Positions 2,439 to 57,244 of a stretch of DNA of 64,000 nucleotides are shown piece by piece. The notes below the pieces were generated by a model, which worked only from the letters and a program-made list of their open reading frames with translations, searched no databases and was not told where the DNA came from. The DNA is from Patescibacteria group bacterium. Its GTDB lineage: Bacteria > Patescibacteriota > Patescibacteriia > UBA2591 > UBA6264. Location: contig JAIPGN010000004.1 in NCBI GenBank assembly GCA_021735685.1, positions 959 to 64,958 on the forward strand, in the 5' to 3' direction. The position numbers and the translations under genes are program-made. How positions within the stretch are numbered: position 1 is the stretch's first letter; the number at the start of each line of letters is the position of its first letter.

Positions 2439-2515
2439 AATTGAAAAAATTTGCCTTTTGTTTTCTTTTTTGTTAACTTGTATTTAGATTTAATAAAATA
2501 AATTTTTTTATTTTT

Positions 2516-3280
2516 ATGAAAAAGATTGGTTTCATTATTATTTTAATAGCTATTATTATTGTTGGTTTTTTAATCTGGCGAACAGAAACTCAGAATGGCT
2601 CAGAAACAGAGTTAGGTCTTACTTTGGAAGAAAAACAAGAATTGGTAAAAACACATATTCAAGAGAATATTTCTAACCTTTCCCCGGAAAAAGAAGTTTT
2701 GGGCGGAACATTTTATATTACAGAATTTGAATTTATGGACTCGGAAACTTGTTTAATTAATTATGAGGATGGGCACATTGCTTTACAGGCAAAGGTAAAT
2801 TTTAATGTTTCTGCTCAAGGAGATGTTGAAATTGTTTCTTTTGATTTGGTTCCTTTAGAAGAAGAAACGAGGGTGAATTTTTCAAAAGAGGGGAACATTT
2901 TGGAAGTTGATCAAGGATGGGAATTAATTTATGAAGAGCCTGGAGCTCCAGCTTTGCGAGCGCTTTTAGTGTTTGATGATAACTCGATTTGCACTAAAGA
3001 AGGAGAGGAAGATCAAGCTTGTTTTCCAGTTTATTGGCAGAATGGTGATCGAGTCATGGTTGAAGGGGCCAAGACAGGGGAAAGAGTTCGAGTGGTTGAT
3101 TTTAGGCTCATTGATCCCTCTGCAGAGATTGATTTAGGGTCAGATTTGGATTTGAAAAATTCAGAAACAGAAATTTGTGTAGATGTGTGTGGTGATGGAG
3201 TTTGTCAAGAAATGGTTTGCTTGGGTTCAGGTTGTCCCTGCGCTGAAACAGTAGCTACTTGTCCGCAGGATTGTTCTTAA
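2516..3280 (+). CDS. Secreted protein with a Cys-rich C-terminus (hypothetical)
   Basis: N-terminal signal/TM (MKKIGFIIILIAIIIVGFLIW). The C-terminus CVDVCGDGVCQEMVCLGSGCPCAETVATCPQDCS is cysteine-rich. Confidence 0.5.
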   Translation: MKKIGFIIILIAIIIVGFLIWRTETQNGSETELGLTLEEKQELVKTHIQENISNLSPEKEVLGGTFYITEFEFMDSETCLINYEDGHIALQAKVNFNVSAQGDVEIVSFDLVPLEEETRVNFSKEGNILEVDQGWELIYEEPGAPALRALLVFDDNSICTKEGEEDQACFPVYWQNGDRVMVEGAKTGERVRVVDFRLIDPSAEIDLGSDLDLKNSETEICVDVCGDGVCQEMVCLGSGCPCAETVATCPQDCS

Positions 3281-35802: not shown

Positions 35803-37167
35803 TTAAATTTTAATCATTTCGCCAGCAGAATGAATGTTTAAAATTTCTGGAGATACTTCAATTATTGATTCCCATTGATACCCCAAGGCTTCAAAGGTTT
35901 TTTCTGAAAGAATAGGGCGATATTGGCCCTGACTAATAACATAAACTGCTGGAGACTCTGATGTTTTTAACAAAGAGCCGTCTCTAAACTTAAGGTGTTC
36001 TCCGGTTTGATATCTTTCTAGCTCTTCAGAATCTACTTTAATGATATTATTATAAGGAAAGTTATTTTCTAAAATACTTAAATCAACAATTGGTCTTTTA
36101 ATGATATCTTTAACGTAATAAACTCCTTTGTTTTCTTTATCTTGCAAAAGGGCTCCGTTAGGGTAGGGGGAACTAATTCTGGCTCCTTCTTGATAACTCA
36201 ATAAATCTTTTTCTTCAACTTGAATAATCTCTTCTGGATTGAATCCAATTGCCCTAAACATTTTTTCAGAAATAGGTCTTTTTTGGCCATCAATTAATAA
36301 GAATATCTCTTCTTTATTTTGAACTAAAGAATAATTAGGGAAATTAACTGGGCTCCCAATTTCATATTTTTCTAATATTTTTGGGTCTACTATTTTTACT
36401 TCTTCAAATTTGTGATTTAGTAAAAAGATTGTAGCGGAATGAAAGGGACGTTTTTTGTTATTTTGAATCAACCAGACCCCATTTTCATTATTGGTCCTGA
36501 CTAAAGATCCTTCTTCTATTTGTCCTTGTTCGGGAGGGAACCAATTGTGCCAGAGGATCCAGAAAAGTCGATTGCCGGCGATATGTGGGGTGTAATTATA
36601 AAGAGCGGCTGTGGCTGAATTTTGTGGCACCACTCGTTGCCAACTAATTCTATAAACTTGACCGGATCGATAAGTAAATTCCCAGGGATGTTCTAAAAAA
36701 TATTTTAAACGCCAAGCGGCTCGATCTACCTGAATCGCAAACCCTCGAAAACTTTTTACCGGGCCTCGATGATCATAGCAAGCAAATCCCGTTGCCCAAT
36801 TATAATCATCTAAACTAGGGTTAGTTTTGGTAATTAACCCTTTTTCTTTTTGAAGAAGAGTTAAAATTACTTGTGGATTGATTTGATATTCTTGGGTGAC
36901 GCGATAAATAATTTCTGAAGCTGTTTTCTCTCGACCATCAATATCTTGAGTTTGATAATTTTTAATTCCTCCACCAGAACTTTCTAGAAAATTCTGAATT
37001 TCTTCTTGACTCATTGATTGAAAATTGGTTAATTCATAATCAGAAATAATATAATCAGGTCTAAAAGAAGAGGCTTTTCCTGGCCAAGGAATGAAAACCA
37101 AAGAAGCAATTAAAAGAATTAATATCTTTTCCTTGGTAAGGTTAGTGAACTTGAAAAAATTTTTCAT
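35803..37167 (-). CDS. Secreted protein with an N-terminal unknown domain and three C-terminal ~65-aa repeats of the (F)RDGSLLK...VY.I..G.KR type
   Basis: Signal peptide. The C-terminus LKFRDGSLLKTSESPAVYVISQGQYRPILSEKTFEALGYQWESIIEV matches the repeats of CDS 3-1079 and CDS 25494-27446. Confidence 0.6.
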   Translation of the reverse strand: MKNFFKFTNLTKEKILILLIASLVFIPWPGKASSFRPDYIISDYELTNFQSMSQEEIQNFLESSGGGIKNYQTQDIDGREKTASEIIYRVTQEYQINPQVILTLLQKEKGLITKTNPSLDDYNWATGFACYDHRGPVKSFRGFAIQVDRAAWRLKYFLEHPWEFTYRSGQVYRISWQRVVPQNSATAALYNYTPHIAGNRLFWILWHNWFPPEQGQIEEGSLVRTNNENGVWLIQNNKKRPFHSATIFLLNHKFEEVKIVDPKILEKYEIGSPVNFPNYSLVQNKEEIFLLIDGQKRPISEKMFRAIGFNPEEIIQVEEKDLLSYQEGARISSPYPNGALLQDKENKGVYYVKDIIKRPIVDLSILENNFPYNNIIKVDSEELERYQTGEHLKFRDGSLLKTSESPAVYVISQGQYRPILSEKTFEALGYQWESIIEVSPEILNIHSAGEMIKI

Positions 37168-39792
37168 TTATTTTTTTGCTTGTTGAATAACTATTTTTTC
37201 GTTTTTAGCATCGACCTTAAAACTGGAAAAAGATTGTTCGTCTTTATTTACGATTTGCAAAGCAAGGGGATCGAGAATTTGTTTTTGAATAACCCTTTTT
37301 AAAGGACGTGCTCCGTAAACTGAGTCAAAGCCCAAAGAGACCAAAAGAGTTTTTACCTTTCCTGAAACCTGTAATTTAATATTTTTACTTTTTAATCTTT
37401 CGATAATTAATTTTAATTGTAAATTCACTATTTGACGAATAGCTTTTTTATCAAGTACATGGAAAATTATGATTTCATCAATTCGATTTAGGAATTCAGG
37501 TTTAAATTTTTCTCGCAAAGCTTCTTGAATTTTATTTTTAATATTTGCTTCAGACCCATTTTTTTCATTTTGAGAAAGGAAACCAAAATTTATTTTTTGA
37601 GCATAATCTCGAATTAATTCACTGCCCAAATTTGAGGTCATAATAATTACTGTATTCTTAAAATTTACTTCTCTTCCTTTAGCATCAGTCAAATGACCTT
37701 CATCCAAAATTTGTAATAAGATATTAAAGACCTGAGGATGAGCTTTTTCAATTTCGTCCAAGAGGATCACGCTATAAGGTCTTCTCCTGACCATTTCTGT
37801 TAGCTGTCCTCCTTCTTCATGCCCAACATACCCAGGGGGAGAGCCAATTATCTTAGAAGCTGTGTGCCGTTCCATATATTCAGACATATCTAATCTAATC
37901 AAAGAATTTTCTGTATTAAAAAGAAATTCCGCCAAACGTTTAGCTAATTCTGTTTTTCCCACTCCACTGGGTCCTAAAAAAATGAAAGAACCAATGGGTT
38001 TATCTTCTTCGGCAATTCCAGCTCGAGAGCGACGAATGGCATTAGCCACTGCACTTACTGCCTCTTCTTGGTCAATAAATTTCTTGTGAATTTCTTTTTC
38101 CATTTTTACCAATTTTTTGCTTTCTTTTTCTAGCATCTTAGTAACTGGGATACCGGTCCAAGTAGAAACTACTTTCGCGATCTCTTCAGCCGATATTTCT
38201 TCTTTTAAAATACGAGAATCCTTTTGGATTTTGGCTAATTTTTTTTCCGCATTCTTAATTTTTTTCTCCAAGCTTGGAATTTCGCCATATTTAATTTCAG
38301 CTACTTTTTGCAAACTGCCTTCTCTTTCTGCTATTTCTGCCTTTTGCTTAAGGTGATCAATTTCTTCTTTAGCCTTATGAATATTCGTAATAATGTCTTT
38401 TTCTGTTTTCCAGCGAATTTCAAATTCATTAATCTTTTCTTTAAGGTTGGCAGCTTGTTTCTTAAGGTTCCTTAATTTATCTTTAGAGTCTTTATCTTTT
38501 TTAAGAATAGTGATTTCAATTTCAATCTGACGCAATTTTCTTTTGATTCTATCTAATTCTTCGGGTTGACTTTCTATTTCTAATCTAAGGGCAGAGGCAG
38601 CTTCATCCATTAAATCAATGGCCTTGTCTGGCAAAAAACGATCAGTAATGTATCGATGAGATAATTGAGCGGCAGCAATTAAAGCATCATCAGCAATACG
38701 AATGCCGTGATGAACTTCGTACTTCTCTTTAATTCCTCGTAAAATAGCAATAGTGTCTTCGGGGCTAGGTTCTTTTATTTGTACGGGCTGAAAACGTCTT
38801 TCTAGGGCGGCATCTTTTTCAATATATTTTTGATATTCTTTGAGAGTAGTTGCTCCAACACAATGTAATTCACCGCGAGCCAAAGCTGGTTTAAGCATGT
38901 TGGAGGCGTCAATAGATCCTTCCGCTCCACCAGCTCCCACTAAAGTGTGCAATTCATCGATAAAAAGGATGTATTGGGCGCTTTTTTTAATCTCCTTTAA
39001 GACTGATTTTAAACGATTTTCAAATTCGCCTCTAAATTTAGCACCAGCAATTAATCCTCCTAAATCTAAAGAAATTAATTCGCGACCCCTTAGAGATTCG
39101 GGAATGTCGTTAGAAATAATTCTTTGGGCTAAGCCTTCAGCAATAGCTGTTTTTCCTACTCCTGCTTCTCCAATTAGAACTGGATTATTCTTGGTGCGAC
39201 GGCTAAGAACTTGAATCACTCTCCTGATTTCGTCATCACGGCCAATAATGGGGTCTAATTTTTCTTGCCGTGCCATTTCGGTTAAATTAATCGTATATTT
39301 TTTTAAAGCGCTGTATTGACCTCTTTCATTCCCTTCTTGACCTTCTTCTTGATGAACACTTTCTAAAACTTTAACAACATTTTCATAATTAATTTTTTCT
39401 TCTAAAAACATATCTTTCAAAGGAGAGGGGGTAGACAAGAGGGCCAAAAAAAGGTGTTCAGTGCCCACATATTCATTTTTAAGATGACGCGCTTCTTTAT
39501 TGGCTTTAATTATTGCCTTTTGGAATAATTGAGTAACATATAAATCAGCTAAACCGCTTTCTATGTCTTCAGACTTAATCTTCGGTAAAGTTTCAATATT
39601 TTTAACAATCTTTTTTTCTATTCTTTCTAGATTAGCTTCCATTTTTTTAAGTACAGCCAAAACTACGCCTTCCTCTTGTTTGAGCAGGGCCAAAGCTAAA
39701 TGAAGAATATCTACCTGTTGTTGGTTGTAACGCATAGCAATATTATGCGCTGCTTGAATAGCTTCTTGAGCTTTGAAAGTAAATTTATTCAT
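37168..39792 (-). CDS. clpB: ATP-dependent chaperone ClpB
   Basis: Clp N-domain, two AAA+ modules (GEAGVGKTAIAEGLAQRI and GPSGVGKTELAKRLA) and a middle coiled coil. I chose the start MNKFTF (ATG at 39790-39792); the track start 22 codons upstream is probably spurious. Confidence 0.93.
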   Translation of the reverse strand: MNKFTFKAQEAIQAAHNIAMRYNQQQVDILHLALALLKQEEGVVLAVLKKMEANLERIEKKIVKNIETLPKIKSEDIESGLADLYVTQLFQKAIIKANKEARHLKNEYVGTEHLFLALLSTPSPLKDMFLEEKINYENVVKVLESVHQEEGQEGNERGQYSALKKYTINLTEMARQEKLDPIIGRDDEIRRVIQVLSRRTKNNPVLIGEAGVGKTAIAEGLAQRIISNDIPESLRGRELISLDLGGLIAGAKFRGEFENRLKSVLKEIKKSAQYILFIDELHTLVGAGGAEGSIDASNMLKPALARGELHCVGATTLKEYQKYIEKDAALERRFQPVQIKEPSPEDTIAILRGIKEKYEVHHGIRIADDALIAAAQLSHRYITDRFLPDKAIDLMDEAASALRLEIESQPEELDRIKRKLRQIEIEITILKKDKDSKDKLRNLKKQAANLKEKINEFEIRWKTEKDIITNIHKAKEEIDHLKQKAEIAEREGSLQKVAEIKYGEIPSLEKKIKNAEKKLAKIQKDSRILKEEISAEEIAKVVSTWTGIPVTKMLEKESKKLVKMEKEIHKKFIDQEEAVSAVANAIRRSRAGIAEEDKPIGSFIFLGPSGVGKTELAKRLAEFLFNTENSLIRLDMSEYMERHTASKIIGSPPGYVGHEEGGQLTEMVRRRPYSVILLDEIEKAHPQVFNILLQILDEGHLTDAKGREVNFKNTVIIMTSNLGSELIRDYAQKINFGFLSQNEKNGSEANIKNKIQEALREKFKPEFLNRIDEIIIFHVLDKKAIRQIVNLQLKLIIERLKSKNIKLQVSGKVKTLLVSLGFDSVYGARPLKRVIQKQILDPLALQIVNKDEQSFSSFKVDAKNEKIVIQQAKK

Positions 39793-39983
39793 AAGTGCTT
39801 TAATTAATATTTTTTCTATCTTAATACTTATTTTAATAAAAAAAGAGACGCTTGTCAAAAGATTGACAAAAGACTTAGAAGAGAGTAAAGAGGTGTTACT
39901 TAGAAGTGCAAAACTTTCTGAAGAGTTAAAGAAAAAATTACCCCTATTTTTTTTCTCAAGGAAAAATGTTATAATTAATCAAT

Positions 39984-40868
39984 ATGATATCTATTGTAAT
40001 TACCACTTTTAAAGAACCGGAAACCCTGAAACAGGCTTTAATTAAAATTTTGAAGGAAGAGATAAGAGAGAAGTATGAGATTTTGGTAGTCGGTCCAGAT
40101 AAAGAGACAGAAGATGTAGCTTGGGAATTTTCTCAACATTACACAGGGGTAAAATATCTCAAAGATTCAGGAGAGGGAAAGCCTGCGGCTCTTAACTTGG
40201 CTTTTGAAAAAGCTCAAGGGGATGTTATAATCTCTACAGACGGAGATGTCATAATTGGAAGCAACGCTATTAATCAACTTGTGTCTGTTTTTAAAGATCC
40301 TCGAGTGGGAGTTGCTAGTGGCCAGCCCTTAAGTGTTAATTTACGCAACACTTTTTTGGGTTATTGGTCTCATTTTTTAACGGCAGCCGCTCATCAAACA
40401 AGAAGCAAGAAGAAAATCTGGCCCTGTTCGGGTTATTTATATGCCTTTCGCAATATAATTAAAGAAATTCCAAAAGAGTCATTCTCGGAAGACGGATTAA
40501 TCACCGAAATAATTAGACAAAAAAAATACAAGATAAAATACGTTTCAAAGGCCAAGGTATATGTGAAGTATCCCACTAATTTAAAAGATTGGTTTAGGCA
40601 GAAAATTCGTTCTGCCGGAGGTTATTCCCAGATATTTACGATGAATAATGGCACTAGAATTAAAACAAAAAAAATGAGAAATATTATTCAAGAAATTAAA
40701 GACGGGGCTCTTCTTTTTATCACTTATCCGCGCAACCTCAAAGAATACCTCTGGACCATTTTATTGTTTTTGAACAGAATAATATTGTGGCTGGTAATTT
40801 TTTGGAAAATTAAAATAAAGAAATCAAAATTTTCTTCCATTTGGAAAAGAGTGGAAAGCACCAAATAA
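39984..40868 (+). CDS. Family-2 glycosyltransferase
   Basis: ISIVITTFKE start and a DGD (DxD) motif, with a C-terminal TM. Confidence 0.7.
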   Translation: MISIVITTFKEPETLKQALIKILKEEIREKYEILVVGPDKETEDVAWEFSQHYTGVKYLKDSGEGKPAALNLAFEKAQGDVIISTDGDVIIGSNAINQLVSVFKDPRVGVASGQPLSVNLRNTFLGYWSHFLTAAAHQTRSKKKIWPCSGYLYAFRNIIKEIPKESFSEDGLITEIIRQKKYKIKYVSKAKVYVKYPTNLKDWFRQKIRSAGGYSQIFTMNNGTRIKTKKMRNIIQEIKDGALLFITYPRNLKEYLWTILLFLNRIILWLVIFWKIKIKKSKFSSIWKRVESTK

Positions 40869-40915
40869 CCTAATTTAAAATAAAATTTTAATAAGCGTAT
40901 AATTAAATATTTTTT

Positions 40916-42373
40916 ATGATTCGTGTTCGTTTTGCTCCTTCTCCCACTGGATTTTTGCATATTGGTGGCCTTCGTACTTGTTTTTATAATTGGCTTTATG
41001 CTCGTCAAAATAAAGGTCAATTTGTGCTTCGCATCGAAGATACAGATCAAAAAAGAATGGTACCTCAAGCCATTGAAGGCTTAACTCAAACTTTAAAAAA
41101 GATGGGCTTAGAGTGGGATGAATTTTATCAGCAATCAAATAGGTTAGACATTTATCAAAAATACGTTAAAGAGCTTGTTGCAAACGGTCACGCTTATCAT
41201 TGTTTTTGCTCTTCGGAACGTCTAGAAAAGGTCAGGGAAAGACAAATTGCAGAAAAAAAGGCTCCCCAATATGATCGTCATTGTCGCTTTTTAAGCCAAA
41301 AAGAAATTGAAGAGAAGGTCAAAGCAGGAGAGTCTTATGTTATTCGTTTAAAAGTGCCAGAGAAGGGGATGGGTCATTTTTTTGATTCCATTCGAGGAAA
41401 AATTGAAATAGACTTAGCTAATATTGACGATCAAGTTCTTTTAAAGTCAGATCATTGGCCCACTTATCATTTGGCCAACGTGATTGATGATCATTTAATG
41501 GGGATAACTCATGTCATTCGCGGGGAAGAATGGCTACCATCAACCATTAAACATATCCTTCTTTATCAGTATTTGGGCTGGAAAGAACCAAAATTTGTTC
41601 ATCTTCCTTTATTGTTAAATTCTGATAAATCTAAGCTCTCTAAAAGGCAAGGAGATGTAGCTGTAGAAGATTATTTAAAACAAGGCTATTTACCGGAGGC
41701 TTTGTTGAATTTTATAGCCCTTCTTGGTTGGAATCCGGGAAATGATCGAGAAATTTTTAAAGTTTCAGATTTGATTAAACATTTTTCTCTAAAAAAAGTT
41801 CAAAAAGCAGGAGCAGTTTTCAATCTCGAGAAACTGAATTGGCTCAATGGTCTTTATGTTAGAGAAATGAATTCTGATCAATTACTAGAAAAAATTTTGC
41901 CTTTTTTGAAAAAATCAAAAATAATTAAAAAAATTGATGAAAAATATTTTGAAGTTATTCCTAGCGGAAAAAAGGTTAATCAAAATTGGCTAAAAAAAGT
42001 AATCATTTTAGAGCAAGGCAGAATGAAAAGATTAAAAGATGTTGAAAAACTAGGTTATTGTTTTTGGAATGATAATTTAGAATACAAGCGAGAATCTTTA
42101 CTTTGGAAAAATTTTTCAGTCAATGAAATTAAAAATAATTTATTAAAGATAAAAACAATCCTTGCTAATATTAAAGAAAAAGATTTTCAAAGTGAAACAA
42201 TAAATCAAGAGGTCTTGGAACAAATTCCAGTCAAAGAAAGAGGGGCTTTTTTTTGGCCTTGGCGAGTCGCCTTATCTGGTCAAGAATCTTCTCCTCCTCC
42301 TAATGAAATCGCAGAAATTCTTGGACCTGAAGAAACATTAAAAAGAGTTGAAAAGGCTATTAATAAATTATGA
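40916..42373 (+). CDS. gltX: Glutamyl-tRNA synthetase
   Basis: Class-I HIGH motif (PSPTGFLHIGG) and KMSKS motif (KLSKR); 485 aa. Confidence 0.95.
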   Translation: MIRVRFAPSPTGFLHIGGLRTCFYNWLYARQNKGQFVLRIEDTDQKRMVPQAIEGLTQTLKKMGLEWDEFYQQSNRLDIYQKYVKELVANGHAYHCFCSSERLEKVRERQIAEKKAPQYDRHCRFLSQKEIEEKVKAGESYVIRLKVPEKGMGHFFDSIRGKIEIDLANIDDQVLLKSDHWPTYHLANVIDDHLMGITHVIRGEEWLPSTIKHILLYQYLGWKEPKFVHLPLLLNSDKSKLSKRQGDVAVEDYLKQGYLPEALLNFIALLGWNPGNDREIFKVSDLIKHFSLKKVQKAGAVFNLEKLNWLNGLYVREMNSDQLLEKILPFLKKSKIIKKIDEKYFEVIPSGKKVNQNWLKKVIILEQGRMKRLKDVEKLGYCFWNDNLEYKRESLLWKNFSVNEIKNNLLKIKTILANIKEKDFQSETINQEVLEQIPVKERGAFFWPWRVALSGQESSPPPNEIAEILGPEETLKRVEKAINKL

Positions 42374-43623
42374 AATTTAGAAAAACAAAGAAAATAATTT
42401 TATTTATAAGTTTATTTGCAATTATTCTTTTAGCGAGTAATTCATGGACCTTTTCTGCACAAGGCCTAGAAATTAATAACGAAGAAATTGAAAAAATACA
42501 AAAAGAAATTGAAATCCGAGAAGACAACATTAAACAGCTAGAAGCTCAAAGAAAAATTTATCAAGAAAAAATTAGCATTAAAAGATCAGAAGTTGGTACT
42601 TTAAAAGAAGAATTAAATTTTATTAACAACAAAATTAATAAGAGTCAATTAGAGATTGAAAGCCAAGAAGAAGAAATTAGTAAAACTGATTTATCTATCC
42701 AAAAAATTCAATTAGAAATTATTGCCAAAAAAAAAGAAGCCGAAAAGACCAAAGATCAACTTCAGGAACTATTACTAACGATTCACGAGTATGACCAGAA
42801 AAATCCTTTAGAAATTATTCTTTTAAATCCTTCTCTTTCTAGCGTTTTTAATCATTGGCAGTATTTAAATTCTTGTCAGCAAAAGATGGCTAGAAATTTA
42901 CAAAGAATATCTACCCTTAAGGAAGGTTTAGAAATTCAAGAGGAAAAATTACGACAAGAAAGACAAAATTTAGTCAATCTTAAAAATGAACTTGATGGTC
43001 AAAAAATACAATTAATAGCTGATAAAGAAATTAATGAGTATCTTTTAGAACAAACCAGGGGAGCAGAGTGGAAATTCCAAAGTTTATTGGCTGAGGTGAT
43101 CACCGAACAACAAAAAATTGATCAAGAAATTAACTCTTTGGAGGAAACCGCTCGAGCTAAAATTGCCCAGGAAAAAGAAAGACAAGCAGAATTAATGGAG
43201 AAAGAGGGGATTTTGATCTTCTCTTGGCCAGTTCCTTTAGAGAAAATAACTTCTCCTTTTCATGACCCAGAATACCCCTTTCGTCATTTAATTGGTGAGC
43301 ACTCTGGGATTGATCTTCGAGCGCACCAAGGTATTCCAGTAAGAGCTTCGGCTTCCGGCTATATAGCTCGAGCTAAGGAGGGAGGAGTAGGGGAATACAG
43401 CTATGTTATGATTATTCACAATAATAGTTTTTCTACAGTTTATGGCCATCTCAGCGACGTTCAGGTAAAAGAAAATCAGTATATTAAGAGAGGAGAGGTG
43501 ATTGGCTTAAGTGGAGGAATGCCGGGCACTCCTGGAGCAGGAATGTTTTGTACAGGGCCACATTTACATTTTGAGATAAGAATGAACGGAATTCCGGTAA
43601 ATCCACAGGATTATTTATTGTGA
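42370..43623 (+). CDS. M23-family murein endopeptidase with an N-terminal coiled coil (EnvC-like architecture, catalytic motifs intact)
   Basis: HxxxD (HSGIDLRA) and HxH (HLHFEI); a long coiled coil; 4-nt overlap with gltX. Confidence 0.85.
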   Translation: MKFRKTKKIILFISLFAIILLASNSWTFSAQGLEINNEEIEKIQKEIEIREDNIKQLEAQRKIYQEKISIKRSEVGTLKEELNFINNKINKSQLEIESQEEEISKTDLSIQKIQLEIIAKKKEAEKTKDQLQELLLTIHEYDQKNPLEIILLNPSLSSVFNHWQYLNSCQQKMARNLQRISTLKEGLEIQEEKLRQERQNLVNLKNELDGQKIQLIADKEINEYLLEQTRGAEWKFQSLLAEVITEQQKIDQEINSLEETARAKIAQEKERQAELMEKEGILIFSWPVPLEKITSPFHDPEYPFRHLIGEHSGIDLRAHQGIPVRASASGYIARAKEGGVGEYSYVMIIHNNSFSTVYGHLSDVQVKENQYIKRGEVIGLSGGMPGTPGAGMFCTGPHLHFEIRMNGIPVNPQDYLL

Positions 43624-43681
43624 AAAAAAATAATAGTGTTATAATAAATAAGGTTATTATTTAAATAATTAAAATAAGTTT

Positions 43682-43993
43682 ATGAGAAACTTTAAACTTT
43701 ATTCTGGTGTTAAAAGTCCTAAACAGCAAACTATTTGGATTGGTTGTCTTTTGTTGGTAATTGCTATTGCCATTGCAGTCGTAGGATTTTTTAATTATGC
43801 CAATTTGCCGGCTCGAGATATTCAAGATGCCGATAATTCTTTAGAAAAACTGGTTTTTCAACAATTATATATTGCAGGAGGAATGGGAGTAATTGGCATT
43901 ATTCTTTTAGTAGGAGGAGCTTTTGCTGCTTTTGACATTAGTAATGAAAACGAAAAAATTAAAAAAACACAAATTGATTCAGAGAATAATTAA
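43682..43993 (+). CDS. Small membrane protein (hypothetical)
   Basis: Two TM helices; 103 aa. Confidence 0.35.
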   Translation: MRNFKLYSGVKSPKQQTIWIGCLLLVIAIAIAVVGFFNYANLPARDIQDADNSLEKLVFQQLYIAGGMGVIGIILLVGGAFAAFDISNENEKIKKTQIDSENN

Positions 43994-43995
43994 GA

Positions 43996-44295
43996 ATGTT
44001 AGTTGATAAAAACATTATTAGAAAAAATACGGAACACCTTACTTCTTTTCTAAAAAGAAGTGGAGGAGGTGGATTTAATGGTAGTTGGGGACAAAAAGAG
44101 CTTAGCCCCGCCTTATCTTTTATGATTTTAGGAATGGTTTTGCTGACGGTCTTTGTAATGGGAGCGTATTTTATGAAAGAATACATTAAAGCTTGGGACA
44201 TTGTTACAGAGAAAATAGATTACGATTTAGAATCTTTAATAAATGATTCCCAGAACAATGTTAATCAAGAATTAGACGACCTGCCTTCTATATAA
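43996..44295 (+). CDS. Small membrane protein (hypothetical)
   Basis: One TM; 99 aa. Confidence 0.35.
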   Translation: MLVDKNIIRKNTEHLTSFLKRSGGGGFNGSWGQKELSPALSFMILGMVLLTVFVMGAYFMKEYIKAWDIVTEKIDYDLESLINDSQNNVNQELDDLPSI

Positions 44296-44393
44296 TTATT
44301 ATTCAAAGGAATAATGGGGAAGGGGTATGTTAAGGGACGCACAAGGTAGCTTTTACGACCCAATGTAATAAAGTAATACAAATTATAACAAAA

Positions 44394-44417
44394 AACGGCC
44401 AAATTAGCCGTTTTTTT
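44394..44417. terminator. Bidirectional terminator between convergent genes
   Basis: AACGGC-caaatta-GCCGTT, with a T-run on the plus side and an A-run before it. Confidence 0.5.
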
Positions 44418-44444
44418 ATAATCTAAGAAATAATTTAGTTTTTG

Positions 44445-45392
44445 TTACTTTTCTTCAGTGAATTTATAAAAAATTTTATCACCAAAGCGCAAATCAATAT
44501 ATTCTAAACCCTTTCTTTCTTTAATTTCTTTTTCTATAATGCCAGACAATTTATCTAATTGTTTTTTAAGTTCTACTTCGGAATTAATTAAAATTTCCCA
44601 TCCCTCAGATGATAATATTTGAACATCAATAACGTCTCCAATGTTATTGATTTCGCATTCAAGGAAATAAATATCATGACTACGCAAAATATCGCTTTGA
44701 ACGAAAAATAAGAGATCTTTTAAGAAATTCTGATAATCTTCTTCAGTTAAAATTAAGTCGCTTTGATCATAAAAAACTAAATCGTCATTAAACGCCTCTT
44801 GGTCGTTTTTTGCTTTTAATAAGCCTTCAGGAGCCTTGATTAATTGTCCCTCCTGATTTAAATAATAACTTTGAGTATCTCCCAGAACCTCAAATCTGAC
44901 TAAAGGTTGATACTCTTTTAAGGTAATCTGTAATTTAGCCGGCCATTTCTTTTTGATTCGTATTGATTTTAAACGAGAATCCTGCCCTATTTCTTTTTCA
45001 GCTAAAGAAGTATCAAAGAAAATTAAATTGCGTCCACTCCAAATCCCAGGTGAGATTAAATCGTTCAAAGAATCCATTATTTCTTGATGAGAAATCAGTT
45101 GATAGTCCTCTTTTTTACTAATTTCAACGTCATTGATTTGAAAAAAAGAAGAAAAAAGCAAAAAATAAGTTAAAAGTCCCAATAAAATTAATAAAATAAA
45201 GCCTAAAGCTAAACGTTTTAGGATTTTTAAACGCTTTTGGCGAATATATTTTCGGCTAATCTTTTCTCGAGAAAAGCCCTTTCTTCTTTTCTTCTTTTGA
45301 AAGTCTTTTTTGTTCAAATTTAAAGACTGCACATATTTATCTGACATATTTTTGAAATCTAGTCCTAAAAAAACAGAGATAAAAAAAGTCAC
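44445..45392 (-). CDS. ftsQ: Cell-division protein FtsQ/DivIB-like (POTRA)
   Basis: Basic N-terminus, single TM, then a POTRA-like region; FtsQ-like size and topology. Confidence 0.5.
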   Translation of the reverse strand: MTFFISVFLGLDFKNMSDKYVQSLNLNKKDFQKKKRRKGFSREKISRKYIRQKRLKILKRLALGFILLILLGLLTYFLLFSSFFQINDVEISKKEDYQLISHQEIMDSLNDLISPGIWSGRNLIFFDTSLAEKEIGQDSRLKSIRIKKKWPAKLQITLKEYQPLVRFEVLGDTQSYYLNQEGQLIKAPEGLLKAKNDQEAFNDDLVFYDQSDLILTEEDYQNFLKDLLFFVQSDILRSHDIYFLECEINNIGDVIDVQILSSEGWEILINSEVELKKQLDKLSGIIEKEIKERKGLEYIDLRFGDKIFYKFTEEK

Positions 45393-45452
45393 TCTCTAAG
45401 TAAATTTTATAGGATCATTTTCTTAAAAATGATTTTATTAAATTAAAGAACT

Positions 45453-46751
45453 TTAATATTTTTCTTCGAAAAGTTTTATTAAATTGCTTTTTTCAAATTC
45501 AAAATTTCCCATTTCTTCCGGAGCAATTGGGCTAACCGGCTCAAAATCTTGAGCTAAAGGATTAATCCATTGACTATATTTGCTCATGGCATAATCTAGA
45601 TGACATCCAGTTGAGGTCCCAGTAGTGCCCACAAAGCCAATTATTTGACCTTGAGATACTTTACTTCCGTACTTGATCCCCCTTGCAAAAGCCGAGAGAT
45701 GGCCATAAAAAGTTTTATAAACCCCGTTGTGGTTAATTTCTGCTCGATAACCATAAACGTTATTACGCCAACCAGCAAAAACTATCACGCCATTACCAGC
45801 TGCAGAGACCGGTGTTCCGCAAGGAGCGGCAAAATCAATAGCTTGATGACTGGTATAGGTGTTCCAAACCGGATGCCAGCGCTTTAGACTATAATAAGAT
45901 GAAATATATTTGTAATGTAAAGGAGATTTCAAGAATTGTTTGCGTAAATTATTGCCTTCTAAATCGTAATAATCAAAATTACCTTCTTGGTCCTCATAGA
46001 AAACTGCCCAATGTTTTTCCTCTTTTTTCTGAAAATAGGCCATTAAAATTTTTCCTGGCCGAATAAATTCTCCATCTAAATAATAATTTTCGTACAAAAC
46101 TTTAAACTTATCCCCTGCTCTCACCTCTAAAGCAAAATTAATATCCCAAGCAAAAATGTCAGCCATTTCAATAATAGTTTTGTCAGCTAATCCTGCTCTT
46201 TTTCCGCTTTGAAATAAAGAATCTTCAATGGTTCCTTCGGCAATTTTTAGCTCTGTTTGGTATTCAATTTCTTTGATTTGAGCCTTCAACTGACCGCTGT
46301 CTTCCTTATTTACTTCTAGAGTCCTTTGATCGTCAATTTGATACTCTAGCTTCAAAAAATTATGAGAATCTTGAGGATCGAAAAAAGATCGTAAAGAGTG
46401 TCCCGCTTTAATTTGGGACAAATCATAAATATCTTGAGTTGCTTCTAAAATTTCTTGTAATTTTTTATCAGTTAAACTTAAAGCAGTGTTCATTTTTGAA
46501 AAAACTTCTCCGTTTTCAATGAAATGTTCCTTAATAGTTGGCAAAAGTTCTCGTTGCTCTTCTTCGGTTTTAGTAAAAAAATTTGATTCAGCTTGAGGTT
46601 TTTTTTCTTGATTGTTTATTTTTTGCCAAATCAAAAAAAAGATAACAAAAAGAATGATCCCTCCAAGAAGATAAAGGTTTTTTTTCCTTTTCTCTTTTCT
46701 TTGCTGGGACTTTCTTATTTTAATTCTGGATGGAGGCATTCTGAGTATCAT
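45453..46751 (-). CDS. M23 peptidase-family protein, membrane-anchored. The second zinc motif reads HLD rather than HxH.
   Basis: HQAIDFAAPCGTPVSAAGNG (HxxxD) is present but the later motif is CHLDYAM. Has an N-terminal TM. Confidence 0.7.
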   Translation of the reverse strand: MILRMPPSRIKIRKSQQRKEKRKKNLYLLGGIILFVIFFLIWQKINNQEKKPQAESNFFTKTEEEQRELLPTIKEHFIENGEVFSKMNTALSLTDKKLQEILEATQDIYDLSQIKAGHSLRSFFDPQDSHNFLKLEYQIDDQRTLEVNKEDSGQLKAQIKEIEYQTELKIAEGTIEDSLFQSGKRAGLADKTIIEMADIFAWDINFALEVRAGDKFKVLYENYYLDGEFIRPGKILMAYFQKKEEKHWAVFYEDQEGNFDYYDLEGNNLRKQFLKSPLHYKYISSYYSLKRWHPVWNTYTSHQAIDFAAPCGTPVSAAGNGVIVFAGWRNNVYGYRAEINHNGVYKTFYGHLSAFARGIKYGSKVSQGQIIGFVGTTGTSTGCHLDYAMSKYSQWINPLAQDFEPVSPIAPEEMGNFEFEKSNLIKLFEEKY

Positions 46752-52575: not shown

Positions 52576-53835
52576 TTACTTATTTTCTTTTTTGTCAAGC
52601 TTAACACTATTCCCCACTACCCAGCCGGTAGCCCAGCAAACCTGCAAATTATACCCTCCGGTAGGTCCGTTTAGGTCTAAAATTTCTCCAGCTAAATAAA
52701 GATTATCAATTATTTTAGATTGCATAGTTAAAGGATTAACCTCTTTCAAGTCTACGCCTCCAGCGGTAATAATCGCTTTTTGATAACCATCTAATTTTTT
52801 AATTTTCAATTTAAACTCTTTGCATAAATGCAAAATTATCTTTCTTTCTTCTTTGGTTAAAGAGTGAACCTTTTTGCTTAAAGGAATTTGAGAAAGTTGA
52901 AGAATGACGGGAATTAATTTTTGAGGCAACAAATCATCTAAACTATTTTTAAAAAATCGGTTGCTTTTTTTAGCAAAGTCTTTTTGAATTCTTTGATCTA
53001 ATTGCGAAAAGCTTAAAGCTGGTTTAAGGTCAATAGACAAACAAAGGTCTGCCTTTTTTTCTAATTCTTGGCCTATTCTTGAGCTTAAATCTAAAATAAT
53101 GGGTCCACTCATTCCTTTATGAGTAAAAAGAGCTTCTCCAAAACGAGAATCTATTTTTTTGTTTTTTTGGTATAAACTAATCTCTACATTTTTTAAACTT
53201 AAACCCTCTAATTGGGAGAGAAAATTTTCCGCACAAATTAAAGGAGTTAAGGCTGGCCTTAGTTTATTAATTCGATGCCCCATTTTTTTTAACCAAAAAT
53301 AACCGTCTCCAGTGGATCCGGTTTGAGGATAAGATTTACCGCCAGTTGCTATTAAAAAATTATTAGCTTTAATTTCCTGGCCATCTTCTAAGATTATTTT
53401 CTCAATTCTTCTTTTCTTAATTACTATTTTTTTAACTGGGCTATTTGTTTTAACTTCTACACCCGACTTCTTTAAGTTTTTGATCAAAACCCGACAAACG
53501 TTTTGCGCCGAATTACTTTGGGGAAAAATGCGTCCTCCTCTTTCTGTTTTTAATCGCAAACCCTTTTTTTCAAAAAAATCAATAATTTCTATTAAGCCAA
53601 ATTGATGTAAAGCCGAAAAAAGAAAATTGCCTTGAGGGCCAAATTCTTTGACAAAATCTCTGGGCTGGTTATCTTGATGAGCTAAATTACAACGCCCCTT
53701 GCCGGTTAACAAAAGTTTAATTCCTAATTTTCTATTTTTTTCAAGCAAAATTACTTTAGAACCCTTGGCTGCAGCCCGCCCAGCAGCCATCATTCCAGCT
53801 GGTCCCCCACCAATTACCACTAAATTATATTTCAT
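52576..53835 (-). CDS. HI0933-family flavoprotein (NAD(FAD)-utilising dehydrogenase, BaiN-like)
   Basis: N-terminal FAD motif YNLVVIGGGPAGMMAAGRAA with a GGG..GR pattern; 419 aa. Confidence 0.85.
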   Translation of the reverse strand: MKYNLVVIGGGPAGMMAAGRAAAKGSKVILLEKNRKLGIKLLLTGKGRCNLAHQDNQPRDFVKEFGPQGNFLFSALHQFGLIEIIDFFEKKGLRLKTERGGRIFPQSNSAQNVCRVLIKNLKKSGVEVKTNSPVKKIVIKKRRIEKIILEDGQEIKANNFLIATGGKSYPQTGSTGDGYFWLKKMGHRINKLRPALTPLICAENFLSQLEGLSLKNVEISLYQKNKKIDSRFGEALFTHKGMSGPIILDLSSRIGQELEKKADLCLSIDLKPALSFSQLDQRIQKDFAKKSNRFFKNSLDDLLPQKLIPVILQLSQIPLSKKVHSLTKEERKIILHLCKEFKLKIKKLDGYQKAIITAGGVDLKEVNPLTMQSKIIDNLYLAGEILDLNGPTGGYNLQVCWATGWVVGNSVKLDKKENK

Positions 53836-53836
53836 A

Positions 53837-54475
53837 TTATTTCTCTACTATAATAAATCTTCTTAAATTGACTGCATACGGGATCCAAGCCTCGGGCATA
53901 CAATTTTGATCTTTGAAAAATTTATCATTATAAGTCTCAGTGGATTCAAAATATTTTTTGTGTTGGTAATAAACCTCTTCTTGAGGGGCTTTACTTGCGC
54001 ATAATTTAAAAGATTTTTCATATGCTTTATGTTTACGAAGAATAACTCCAACCTTGGGGACGGTAAAAATTAAACCACTTTCTAAAGTTTTACTCACAAA
54101 AAGTTTAATCCAGGAATAAGTATTAAGCCATTGAGATAAAGATTGCAGAGGAATTGCTACCACACATTTTGGATTACCAAATTTTTGATTAAAAGAAGCT
54201 AAATCAAACCCTTGATCGCGTAATATTTGATGATCATAATTACGAAGAAAAATTAAATTAGGAATGGTTCTTGTTCTTAAAATTTCTTGATGTGCAACTT
54301 TAGGCAGAAAGCGAATCATCACTTCTTCAGATTGATCAACATTAAAAGATAAATTTTTAGAAAGATTTTCGTAAAAAAAAGCTAATTCTCGGGAAAGTTT
54401 CATCATTTCCTTGTCTTCTAACCACTTTCTGTCAAATCCTTTTTTATATTTTCTGAACCCTGTTTGATTATTCAT
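53837..54475 (-). CDS. Hypothetical protein
   Basis: 212 aa; no family recognised; 1-nt gap to the upstream gene. Confidence 0.45.
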   Translation of the reverse strand: MNNQTGFRKYKKGFDRKWLEDKEMMKLSRELAFFYENLSKNLSFNVDQSEEVMIRFLPKVAHQEILRTRTIPNLIFLRNYDHQILRDQGFDLASFNQKFGNPKCVVAIPLQSLSQWLNTYSWIKLFVSKTLESGLIFTVPKVGVILRKHKAYEKSFKLCASKAPQEEVYYQHKKYFESTETYNDKFFKDQNCMPEAWIPYAVNLRRFIIVEK

Positions 54476-54478
54476 GTT

Positions 54479-54682
54479 TTAGATTTCTTTATTCATTTCT
54501 TTCTTTACTTCTTCAAATTCATTTTCCAAACCCTGTAATTGGTGCTTGCTTTCCTTGATTAATTTGCCTCCCTCCTTAATTTTACTTAGGCCTACTTCTA
54601 AATCAATCTCTTTTTGTTGGTCAAACCATTTAACAATTTCTTCTAATTTTTTAAAATTTTGTTTTAATTTGTTGTTTTCCAT
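54479..54682 (-). CDS. xseB: Exodeoxyribonuclease VII small subunit
   Basis: 67-aa helical protein with the LEEIV...E.DLE..L.....G pattern. It sits in the same minus-strand cluster as xseA. Confidence 0.65.
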   Translation of the reverse strand: MENNKLKQNFKKLEEIVKWFDQQKEIDLEVGLSKIKEGGKLIKESKHQLQGLENEFEEVKKEMNKEI

Positions 54683-54683
54683 A

Positions 54684-55517
54684 TTAATTTATTTTTAATA
54701 TTTTTTTTATTTGACTAAGGGCTTCTTGGGTCGACCTCTCCCCTTCTTGAACCACATCTTCAATTTCTCCTTTAATTAATTTTTGCCAACCAATTGAACC
54801 CAAATATCCAACTTGAGGCTCAATAATGATATCAGCGTTCCTTAAGCTTTTTTGAGCTAAATGATATTGCAAACAATGAAAATAACGAGTTAATAGAAGA
54901 TTGTCCCAAAAATTAGTTGTTTTTTCTTTATTTTTAAAATAACTACTATTGTCTAAATTAACAGCAATTACTATTTCCGCTCCCATCTTCTTTACGGCTT
55001 CCACTGGAACTGGCTCTGATAAACCGCCATCACAAAGAAGGTGCTCTTTCCACGATACTGGTTTAAAAAACAAAGGAACCGAAGCACTTCCTCGGATCGC
55101 TAAAGCTATATTCCCTTCGTTTATCCTTACGGACTCGGCATTATTAAAATCTGTAGCCATCACAGATAAAGGAATTTTTGTGTCTTTAAAACTAGAATTC
55201 TTTGTTACTTCTTCTAAAAAATTTTTAAATTTTTCTCCTTTCATTAAGCCTTGTTTCCAAGATAAATCTAAAAGAGAGATAGATTTACTCCAGCCCCTAG
55301 AATTAATTATCTTTTTTATTTCCTCAATTTTGGGATTCAAAGCATAAAGAGAGCCAATGATTGCACCCGCACTACTACCAACAATAAAATCAATGGGTAT
55401 TTTGTTTTCTTCTAAAACTTTAATTACTCCTAGATGAGCATAACCCTTGGCCCCTCCGCTTCCTAAGGCTAACCCTACTTTAGGTTTTCTTTTTTTTAAA
55501 AAATTAAAAGTTCTCAT
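54684..55517 (-). CDS. Patatin-like phospholipase
   Basis: GxGxxG (GSGGAKG), GxSxG (GSSAG) and the catalytic DGG (CDGGLSEP). Confidence 0.85.
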   Translation of the reverse strand: MRTFNFLKKRKPKVGLALGSGGAKGYAHLGVIKVLEENKIPIDFIVGSSAGAIIGSLYALNPKIEEIKKIINSRGWSKSISLLDLSWKQGLMKGEKFKNFLEEVTKNSSFKDTKIPLSVMATDFNNAESVRINEGNIALAIRGSASVPLFFKPVSWKEHLLCDGGLSEPVPVEAVKKMGAEIVIAVNLDNSSYFKNKEKTTNFWDNLLLTRYFHCLQYHLAQKSLRNADIIIEPQVGYLGSIGWQKLIKGEIEDVVQEGERSTQEALSQIKKILKIN

Positions 55518-57028
55518 ATTTTTTTTATTTGATCAATCTTTGTTTTTAACTGACCGTCGCTTAAACGAACATCAACCTGATCACCCTTTTTTAATTTTTG
55601 AATACTTTTAATAATCTTGTTCTTGCGGCTAATGATACTATAGCCCAATTTTAATTGACGTAAGGGATTAACATCTTTTAGCTTGTTTTCAATACTTTTT
55701 AAATATTCTTTTCGAATATTAAAGTTATTTTGCCAAAGTTTAAACCAAGACCCTGGCCAACGATCAAGAGAATTTTTCTTTTCTTTTAAGGTGTATTCCC
55801 AGCGCCAAAAACTTTCTTTAATTTTAGTTTTGAGTAAATTGAATTTTTCAAAAACAAAATTAAATCGAGAAATTAATTGATGAGCCTTGTTTTCTAAATA
55901 ATGATAATTAACCATTAAATTATGTTGATACTGATTAATTATTTTTTCTTGCCAAGCTAGTAGTTGATGTTTGGCTTCGTCCCAAGATTGATTTAGAGTA
56001 ATCGCTGTAGCTGTGGGCGTAGAAACTATTAAATCAGAGGCCAAAGAAGCTAAGGGGACATCTTGATCATGACCAATACCACAAATAACTGGAACTCTGA
56101 AGTTAGCTATTTTACGAGTTAAAATTTCGTTATTAAAAGCCTGTAAGCTCTCTAAACTGCCTCCACCCCTAATTATTACCAGAACCTCAATATCTGCCTG
56201 TTGAAAATAATTTAGGGCCGCAACTAAATCCGTAACTGCTGCTTGCCCCTCTACTCGAGAGCCTTTAAATTTAATTTGATAACCATAATTGCCAAGATTA
56301 TTCAAAAAATCATGAATTACTGCTCCTGTAGAAGAAGTAATTAAACCTATTTTTTGAGGAAATTCTGGGAGAATTCTTTTTTTGGCAGGATCAAACAATC
56401 CTTCTTTTTCTAATTTTTTCTTTAATTTTTCATAAGCTTTTTTCAATGCTCCCTCCCCCACTAATTCTACAGTTTGGGAGCGAAAAGTGAGACTTCCACT
56501 TGGCTTATAAACCTCTGGCAAACCATTAACAATTATTTCCGTGCCTTCCTCTAATTTAATCCCGCAAATTTCGTAATCCCTTCTCCACATAAAACATCTT
56601 AAAATGCTCTTGCTTTGCAAATCTTTGAGAGAAAAAAATAAATAATTAGACCGAATATTAATTTCTGCTATTTCTCCCTGCACCCTTCCTTTAATCTCGC
56701 TTAAACTATCGTTCAATAAATTTAAATACTTTTCTACTGTATAAATAGTCTCCTCTCGTTCTTGCTGTTCTTCTGCCCCTACCTCTTCCTCTGATTCAAC
56801 GGGAGAACGAAGAAAATTAACTATGCTTAAAATTTCTTCTCCGTATTTTTGGTATTTCTTTTCTTTAATCCCCTTAATGCTGATTAATTCATTTTTATCT
56901 TGAGGTTTAAGCCGAGCAACATCTTCTAAAGACTTATTGTTCAAAACTCGAAACAATTCAACTCCTTCTTTTCGGGCTGTTTTTTTTCTCCACTCTCTTA
57001 ATTTTTCTAATAAAAAATTGGGGGGCAT
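55514..57028 (-). CDS. xseA: Exodeoxyribonuclease VII large subunit with an N-terminal HRDC-like extension
   Basis: XseA core: OB-fold region, then IGLITSSTGAVIHDF...IRGGGSLESLQAFNNE...VICGIGHDQDVPLASLASD. The first ~90 aa, LLEKLREWRKKTARKEGVELFRVLNNKSLEDVARLKPQDKNELISIKGIKEKKYQKYGEEIL, match the HRDC pattern of RecQ/RNase D. Confidence 0.85.
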   Translation of the reverse strand: MPPNFLLEKLREWRKKTARKEGVELFRVLNNKSLEDVARLKPQDKNELISIKGIKEKKYQKYGEEILSIVNFLRSPVESEEEVGAEEQQEREETIYTVEKYLNLLNDSLSEIKGRVQGEIAEINIRSNYLFFSLKDLQSKSILRCFMWRRDYEICGIKLEEGTEIIVNGLPEVYKPSGSLTFRSQTVELVGEGALKKAYEKLKKKLEKEGLFDPAKKRILPEFPQKIGLITSSTGAVIHDFLNNLGNYGYQIKFKGSRVEGQAAVTDLVAALNYFQQADIEVLVIIRGGGSLESLQAFNNEILTRKIANFRVPVICGIGHDQDVPLASLASDLIVSTPTATAITLNQSWDEAKHQLLAWQEKIINQYQHNLMVNYHYLENKAHQLISRFNFVFEKFNLLKTKIKESFWRWEYTLKEKKNSLDRWPGSWFKLWQNNFNIRKEYLKSIENKLKDVNPLRQLKLGYSIISRKNKIIKSIQKLKKGDQVDVRLSDGQLKTKIDQIKKI

Positions 57029-57045
57029 TTTTCAACTAACTCTTA

Positions 57046-57147
57046 TTTAAGACGGTTCTTTATTTTTCTTTTTTGGTTCTTAGAAAGTTTTTTTACTCCC
57101 TTCTCTTTAAGAACTTTGGCAATTTTACGTGCTTTTTTTCTGTGCAT
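57046..57147 (-). CDS. Possible 33-aa very basic peptide, MHRKKARKIAKVLKEKGVKKLSKNQKRKIKEPS (speculative)
   Basis: ATG-to-TAA ORF 17 nt upstream of xseA; no convincing RBS; below the track's size cut-off. Confidence 0.15.
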
Positions 57148-57244
57148 AAAAATTCTTAATTAAATTAATAATATTTTGATTAGTTTTTTAATTATAACAA
57201 ATTTGAATAGATAAAAAAAGTTGAAATTTTGAAAAATTTCTGCT

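Follow-up and report, generated by a model that had tools for sequence, protein, structure and literature searches.

What does a domain shared with RecQ helicases and RNase D do at the N-terminus of an exonuclease VII large subunit, and does a lipase gene lodged between the genes of the two subunits have any part in it? Both questions are raised by an xseA-patatin-xseB gene string on the minus strand of a 64 kb stretch of DNA from a Patescibacteria group bacterium (contig JAIPGN010000004.1), which we refer to as the window. Exonuclease VII (ExoVII), a nuclease conserved in bacteria, clears trapped topoisomerases and processes the ends of single-stranded DNA (ssDNA). Our analysis suggests that the locus probably encodes an ExoVII with a flexibly tethered helicase-and-RNase-D C-terminal (HRDC) domain serving as an auxiliary DNA-binding or targeting module, and that the lipase gene is an incidental insertion. 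The parts of the locus on which the argument depends are the following.

55514-57028, minus strand: xseA, exonuclease VII large subunit of 504 amino acids with a predicted N-terminal HRDC domain (open reading frame (ORF) list, TIGR00237)
56819-57013, minus strand: HRDC domain of XseA, residues 6-70 (PF00570)
56738-56812, minus strand: variable, acidic and disordered linker from the HRDC domain to the oligonucleotide-binding (OB) fold, residues 73-97, about 25 residues (AlphaFold2 model, alignment)
56459-56737, minus strand: OB fold of XseA, residues 98-190 (PF13742, AlphaFold2 strands)
55541-56398, minus strand: ExoVII_L region of XseA, residues 211-496, with the catalytic domain, the long XseB-binding helix and the C-terminal beta domain (PF02601)
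54684-55517, minus strand: patatin-like phospholipase of 277 amino acids, between xseA and xseB (PF01734 and motifs)
54479-54682, minus strand: putative xseB, divergent exonuclease VII small subunit of 67 amino acids (PF02609, TIGR01280, synteny)

An HRDC domain at the N-terminus of XseA

An earlier reading made from the letters alone (the sequence-only reading) had proposed that about 90 residues at the N-terminus of XseA form an HRDC domain. Pfam family PF00570 matches residues 6-70 with 77.4 bits against a cut-off of 23.8 (E = 8.4e-22) and spans profile positions 4-68 of 68, and the RecQ and RNase D models of NCBIfam match this part of XseA as well, through their HRDC ends. Among solved structures, residues 6-72 match the HRDC domains of RecQ and BLM, the best match being the third HRDC domain of D. 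radiodurans RecQ (DrRecQ HRDC3; 2rhf, E = 2.9e-7). An AlphaFold2 model built on the alignment of XseA homologues, with a mean predicted local distance difference test score (pLDDT) of 80.8, places helices at residues 3-21, 25-28, 31-40, 45-49 and 56-72 at a pLDDT of about 85, which amounts to a five-helix bundle. A Foldseek search of the whole model against the PDB returned no independent HRDC fold match, and its list after the E. coli ExoVII structure 8txr consisted mostly of OB-fold matches. The NCBIfam xseA equivalog alignment begins at residue 112, equivalent to model position 19, and the N-terminal extension is therefore about 93 residues long. These comparisons confirm the predicted fusion of a bona fide HRDC domain to a complete XseA. 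An identical XseA is on a database record, where it is annotated as exodeoxyribonuclease VII large subunit.

The XseA domain shares with the HRDC domains of RecQ (2rhf; E. coli, 1wud; BLM, 2kv2) and RNase D the five-helix fold, a full-length PF00570 match and a basic pair of residues in helix 5, and is about 30-35% identical to those that have been solved. It differs from them in position, being N-terminal where theirs are C-terminal, and in its partner, since it is joined to a nuclease with its own OB fold rather than to a helicase or RNase D core. The linker that follows the domain has a pLDDT below 50 at residues 75-92 and ranges from 14 to 45 amino acids in length among homologues.

Translation and selection of the extension

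Internal methionines occur in XseA only at residues 147 and 372, with none between 1 and 147, and Met147 falls inside the OB fold. The N-termini of 120 homologues consist of a methionine and three or four residues followed by a conserved LLxKLKxWR motif. Mean pairwise identity among 66 homologues is 57.7% in the HRDC domain and 61.8% in the OB fold, compared with 39.8% in the helical region and 18.4% in the linker. The ratio of nonsynonymous to synonymous substitution rates (dN/dS), calculated against a relative with an 85% identical XseA, is 0.11 for the HRDC domain, 0.56 for the linker and 0.05 for the OB fold and catalytic regions. The HRDC segment is under purifying selection.

The sequence-only reading had named two findings that would speak against an HRDC extension, the lack of an HRDC match and a true start codon further downstream. 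Both were checked, and the HRDC match together with the methionine positions, the N-terminal conservation and dN/dS answers them in favour of the extension. There is next to no chance that the extension is an annotation artefact, with a true start downstream and the HRDC-like stretch untranslated, as nothing was found to support this beyond a weak Shine-Dalgarno-like sequence before the ATG at 57028, and it is refuted by the missing methionines, by conservation from the first residues onward, by dN/dS and by a Pfam score three times the cut-off.

The exonuclease VII core

Behind the linker, XseA has the makings of a complete large subunit. The NCBIfam xseA equivalog TIGR00237 matches it with 314.9 bits against a cut-off of 180. 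Within it, PF13742 (tRNA_anti_2 OB) covers residues 98-187 with 56.4 bits, preceding the catalytic domain, and the model shows the beta strands of the OB fold at 114-189. PF02601 (Exonuc_VII_L) covers residues 211-496 with 214 bits against a cut-off of 35.9 (E = 4.7e-63), and the model continues with a single helix of 115 residues (338-452) and then beta strands at 465-497. E. coli ExoVII (8txr) is matched by sequence in two segments (E = 4.4e-43), the C-terminal one to 8txr residues 389-446, and is also the top Foldseek match of the XseA model in the PDB. Residues D240, R287 (in RGGGS), H320 and D323 (the latter two in GHDQD) align with E. coli D155, R205, H238 and D241, where the structure used for the alignment, 8txr, is the H238A mutant, and all four are invariant in 66 homologues.

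The E. coli genes xseA and xseB are unlinked. The enzyme of the window shares with that of E. coli the OB fold, a D/R/H/D catalytic domain related to 3-dehydroquinate dehydratases, the XseB-binding helix and the C-terminal beta domain (8txr; PMC10835039), as well as a small helical XseB, here a putative one encoded in the same gene string as xseA. It differs by the roughly 93 additional N-terminal residues, which make up the HRDC domain and flexible linker, and by a divergent XseB of 67 rather than 80 amino acids.

The identity of this small subunit requires some weighing, as its match to PF02609 reaches 23.6 bits and so falls just under the curated cut-off of 24, and TIGR01280 scores 23.9 bits against a cut-off of 35 (E = 3.2e-5); both scores count against a two-subunit enzyme. 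In addition, a profile of XseB orthologues did not retrieve the solved XseB chains from the PDB sequences. PF02609 does match 12 of the 12 orthologues scanned (E at or below 0.01, best 1.7e-8), and in about 40 loci an orthologue is the next gene after xseA, mostly following a gap of 2-20 nt. Because of this position and these matches, we accept the 67-amino-acid protein as a putative divergent XseB, and the locus is predicted to encode a functional two-subunit ExoVII composed of XseA and XseB.

Distribution of the fusion

The fusion had been called unusual, and this holds only in part. Against characterised ExoVII such as that of E. coli it is correct, while within the lineage the HRDC, OB and ExoVII_L architecture is present in 120 of the 120 best database homologues of XseA (48-100% identity). 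A single strict HRDC peptide pattern also recovered HRDC-OB-XseA proteins from 45 species-representative genomes, nearly all of which are labelled Patescibacteria (Parcubacteria/Paceibacterota, Moraniibacteriota, Taga-, Portnoy-, Jorgensen-, Staskawicz- and Azambacteria). HRDC-XseA is thus the rule in this lineage.

When XseA residues 1-95 were searched, filter-free, against 1.84 billion representatives, 4851 HRDC proteins reached an E-value of at most 1e-3. Among the best 150 of these 4851 matches, about 21 clusters (at 50% identity) are XseA fusions of about 500 amino acids with an N-terminal HRDC domain. The remaining matches reveal a promiscuous domain, joined among others to GIY-YIG nucleases, UvrD and RecQ helicases, HTH_40 and PhoH-like ATPases. 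They include P0241, a GIY-YIG nuclease with a zinc knuckle and four HRDC domains; P0251, a UvrD helicase with three; and P0304, in which an N-terminal HRDC domain 50% identical to that of XseA is fused to a PhoH-like ATPase. Apart from P0304, the nearest HRDC domains outside XseA are at most 43% identical and occur in many architectures, and no donor could be named from them. The fusions from other uncultivated bacteria (GIY-YIG with four HRDC domains, UvrD with HRDC, HRDC with PhoH) have in common with XseA the use of HRDC as a portable accessory on DNA-processing enzymes, but their catalytic partners differ, and many have two to four tandem copies where XseA has one.

HRDC-XseA is also found under labels other than Patescibacteria, in a 198-kb contig of NPL-UPA2 bacterium Unc8 (L025) and a 3.5-kb contig of Ca. 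Oleimmundimicrobium, Actinomycetota (L027). Both proteins fall among sequences of the Candidate Phyla Radiation (CPR) in the XseA tree, a placement that would fit either horizontal transfer or mis-binning. The fusion is also carried by several TPA_asm bins labelled Gammaproteobacteria, Bacteroidales or Bdellovibrionales, and these may be mislabelled.

Full-text literature searches found no published discussion of an HRDC-XseA fusion, which is visible in automatic domain annotation and appears uncharacterised. HRDC is a common accessory of DNA enzymes, so the fusion is not mechanistically surprising; nor is it rare, and its interest is modest.

A possible role for the HRDC domain

Capturing and orienting DNA is what the HRDC domain does for RecQ helicases and RNase D. 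In XseA the domain may similarly have an auxiliary part in nucleic-acid binding or targeting: on the leash of the disordered linker it would capture or orient ssDNA or junctions between single- and double-stranded DNA (ss/dsDNA junctions) and pass them on to the OB fold and nuclease core. A second contribution could be to favour DNA in its competition with the autoinhibited tetramer known from the E. coli enzyme. In the E. coli assembly, XseA4-XseB24, the catalytic domains are kept sequestered, and the autoinhibited tetramer involves the N-terminal OB folds, with which E. coli XseA begins; DNA ends push the assembly towards active dimers (PMC10835039).

The charge of the domain, a net +6 (family median +4.5), is compatible with DNA binding. 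K57 and K58, at the start of helix 5, align with K805 and R806 of DrRecQ, a site that, along with its equivalents in E. coli RecQ (K587), Sgs1 and BLM, contributes to DNA binding or to double Holliday junction dissolution (PMC2396406). Across the HRDC-XseA family K58 is invariant and position 57 is either lysine or arginine, within the pattern IKGI[KR][ED][KR]KF.

Two points weigh against a DNA-targeting role. HRDC functions vary, and some of these domains, with DrRecQ HRDC3 and BLM as examples, show weak DNA binding or none and work by way of contacts between domains (PMC2396406; PMC4446433). Furthermore, the AlphaFold2 model is of a monomer and gives no placement of the HRDC domain in the XseA/XseB assembly.

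It is possible, if rather unlikely, that regulation or protein interaction is the main task of the HRDC domain, which would dock on the XseA head or on a partner and gate the active sites or oligomerisation. Of the solved structures DrRecQ HRDC3 is the closest to it, and a regulatory role between domains has been proposed for HRDC3 (PMC2396406); the HRDC domain of BLM contacts the helicase core (PMC4446433), and E. coli ExoVII is itself under steric autoinhibition (PMC10835039). The acidic linker, with a net charge of -7 here, might bend back onto the basic surface of the HRDC domain or the OB fold. However, linker acidity is not conserved (family median -2, range -8 to +4), and neither is the acidic-patch residue D816 of DrRecQ, which aligns with S68 in XseA; together these two observations are a mild argument against docking. 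The net basic charge of the domain and the conserved DNA-contacting K/R-K pair also speak against a mainly regulatory role, and in the model there is no confident contact, and the linker has a pLDDT below 50. We therefore continue to favour a tethered DNA-binding or targeting module.

The gene string and the patatin-like insertion

The remaining features of the locus are as follows.

57191-57199, minus strand: TGTTATAAT, candidate extended -10 element read from the letters, in the divergent intergenic region upstream of the 34-amino-acid ORF
57043-57147, minus strand: very basic ORF of 34 amino acids (MHRKKARKIAKVLKEKGVKKLSKNQKRKIKNRLK), from translation and called as a gene in relatives
53837-54475, minus strand: orphan ORF of 212 amino acids, clade-variable (ORF list)
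52576-53835, minus strand: HI0933-like FAD protein, the final gene of the packed string (PF03486, 287.9 bits)

The minus-strand genes are packed with near-zero intergenic space in the order 34-amino-acid ORF, xseA, patatin, xseB, 212-amino-acid ORF and HI0933-like gene. By sequence inspection the xseA stop (TGA) and the patatin start share an ATGA, a 4-nt overlap, and xseB starts 1 nt past the patatin stop. The spacings from xseA onward are -4 (xseA/patatin), +1 (patatin/xseB), +3 (xseB/212-amino-acid ORF) and +1 nt (212-amino-acid ORF/HI0933-like gene). As there is no intergenic room for signals between the genes, the xseA-patatin-xseB string is likely co-transcribed, and the co-transcription proposed in the sequence-only reading is the natural expectation from these spacings.

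The patatin had also been described as a protein with intact motifs overlapping xseA by 4 nt, which the ORF coordinates and the letters bear out. PF01734 matches it with 117 bits against a cut-off of 27.7, and it has the motifs GSGGAKG at 19-25 (oxyanion GGxxxG), GSSAG at 47-51 (GxSxG) and DGG at 163-165. The best-matching model is the RssA equivalog NF007623, whose 147.7 bits lie below the cut-off of 272, so that membership is not established. With RssA/YchK-type patatins (the NTE family) it shares the fold signature, these three motifs and a length of about 270-300 amino acids; it differs in falling under the equivalog cut-off and in its place in an xseAB string, an arrangement that only one CPR clade shows. 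Patatins of this family are widespread in CPR genomes, encoded by a single-copy gene of about 270 amino acids. The protein is probably an RssA/NTE-type lipase with a housekeeping or lipid-scavenging function.

To see how the patatin came to lie here we compared 53 HRDC-XseA loci centred on xseA, and read the neighbourhoods centred on the patatin separately. Besides the window, only L001/L002, L003, L052 and L053 have a patatin between xseA and xseB; their XseA proteins are 85%, 62%, 59% and 58% identical to that of the window, respectively. L004 (60%) is syntenic, with the 34-amino-acid ORF, xseA, xseB and the HI0933-like gene, yet has no patatin, and no close patatin was found in the flanks of the other 45 HRDC-xseA loci. 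The two exonuclease genes, separated by the patatin here, are adjacent in most relatives of the locus, with xseB directly after xseA in about 40 of the loci that lack the patatin. In a neighbour-joining tree, a distance tree drawn without support values, the patatin-bearing loci form one clade with L004 nested in it. This topology suggests one insertion and one loss, and the patatin would then be a clade-specific insertion with one apparent loss. Conservation of the insertion across relatives, a survey proposed in the sequence-only reading, thus holds for five lineages and fails for L004 and the 45 other loci.

From the patatin side, homologues at 52-85% identity occupy the xseA-xseB slot, and at 49% identity or below the gene neighbourhoods are unrelated ones. 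The 4-nt overlap with xseA is found only in the window and its 85% identical relative; the gaps are 8-19 nt in L003, L052 and L053. The 212-amino-acid ORF behaves as a second variable insertion, at the xseB/HI0933 junction, being present in the window and L003 and absent from L001 and L004. We view both genes as clade-specific insertions into an ancestrally contiguous xseA-xseB string, which are probably co-transcribed because the genome is tightly packed and not because they work jointly with ExoVII.

The only other patatin seen near xseA is an ORF at 2044-3033 (plus strand) of L016, an unrelated Patescibacteria genome, which lies about 1 kb upstream of an HRDC-xseA, is 31% identical to the patatin of the window and is probably there by coincidence. 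The gene after a patatin homologue in L054 encodes a protein whose HI0933-like and FAD-domain matches are weak.

Could the patatin nevertheless be a functional partner of ExoVII, translationally coupled to it, for example in a membrane-proximal module that degrades imported DNA and host lipids? The ATGA overlap and the 1-nt gap to xseB fit such coupling, as would the ComEC-like competence gene about 0.7 kb upstream of xseA in L052 and the distant patatin-like ORF of L016. What counts against an incidental insertion is that five lineages keep the slot at a patatin identity of only 52-55%, so that the arrangement may bring some selective benefit. We nevertheless consider a partnership very unlikely, as the patatin is missing from L004 of the same clade and from the 45 other loci, the overlap is not conserved, homologues also occur in unrelated neighbourhoods, and the unrelated 212-amino-acid insertion comes and goes at the next gene junction, which suggests that these junctions simply tolerate insertions. 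The functional lipase-nuclease unit that had been read into the locus was tested from both the xseA and the patatin side and gave way to a clade-specific insertion; a functional tie is not supported, and the lipase appears to be independent of ExoVII.

A further suggestion, that the patatin, with or without the 212-amino-acid orphan, is an anti-phage defence effector that landed in the xseAB operon, is highly improbable: the matches that prompt it, to a PADLOC phospholipase effector (weak, 45.4 bits), the NCBIfam DS2_1 anti-phage phospholipase (NF053870, 41.9 bits) and the CBASS lipase (NF041079, 23.6 bits), cover only the generic N-terminal patatin core and fall far under cut-offs (400 bits for DS2_1, 200 for the CBASS lipase), and the best model is of the housekeeping RssA type. 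The string has no adjacent cyclase, sensor or other defence gene, the 212-amino-acid ORF has no PADLOC or PHROG match, and a single-copy family so widespread in CPR genomes does not fit a defence role. The searches of PADLOC, PHROGs and NCBIfam for a defence island here gave generic sub-threshold patatin matches and nothing else.

Other genes and signals of the locus

The 34-amino-acid ORF ends 14 nt before xseA and is probably the first gene of the xseA transcription unit. Copies at least 85% identical to it, an identity seen in seven loci, stand in the same position in L001, L003, L004, L007, L052 and L053, where the identity of XseA is only about 60%. Searches of PADLOC and PHROGs gave no match for it, Pfam and NCBIfam not having been run on it. 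On the other side of the intergenic region uppP/bacA begins at 57245 in divergent orientation.

The candidate -10 element TGTTATAAT was not recovered by a consensus scan for promoters with two hexamers. The promoter and terminator scan was uninformative here, with promoter-like sites not enriched (14 compared with 15.6 expected) and the single minus-strand terminator-like site of the xseA-patatin-xseB stretch lying inside the patatin coding sequence.

The 212-amino-acid ORF has no Pfam, NCBIfam, PADLOC or PHROG match and no sequence match in the PDB. Its relatives amount to only four clusters among 5.8 billion proteins (63-100% identity), plus the copy in L003, and its AlphaFold2 model has a pLDDT of 39 and is unusable. 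The HI0933-like gene follows xseB in the clade of the window (L001, L003 and L004), and one is also found about 450 nt past xseA in the distant L041, where XseA is 43% identical.

Elsewhere in the window, GC skew changes from positive to negative at about 36000-46000, and gene orientation changes from plus to minus, the last long plus-strand ORF ending at 43623 and minus-strand ORFs starting from 44445. This convergence has the look of a replication terminus within the window. No tRNA genes and no Rfam families at the gathering threshold were found in the whole 64 kb. A plus-strand ORF of 2445 amino acids lies at 14908-22245.

Significance

HRDC-XseA is an uncharacterised variant of a known enzyme that forms a widespread CPR subfamily, and not a one-off oddity. 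One proposal that goes further, and that we regard as doubtful, is that HRDC-ExoVII is the means by which Patescibacteria, with a minimal repair set, process DNA ends and gaps, and that the HRDC domain would give the nuclease the structure-specific targeting for which other bacteria use RecQ together with RecJ. The targets might then be ss/dsDNA junctions, forks and protein-blocked ends, and it might, in addition, be the HRDC domain that opens the autoinhibited assembly of ExoVII on DNA. The proposal could be extended to HRDC-ExoVII processing imported DNA for nucleotide salvage; if that were true, co-expression with a scavenging lipase in one clade would be more than an accident.

The patatin is mainly of interest as a caution that overlap and co-transcription in packed CPR genomes do not imply shared function. 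The steric autoinhibition of ExoVII was worked out only in 2024 (PMC10835039), and a large natural subfamily with an added HRDC module at the DNA-entry side lends itself, as it stands, to experiments on the coupling of substrate recruitment to activation. For the ultra-small CPR bacteria, HRDC-ExoVII may be a clue to how DNA repair or salvage is managed with few genes, and the fusion provides a testable lead on both ExoVII substrate recruitment and CPR DNA metabolism.

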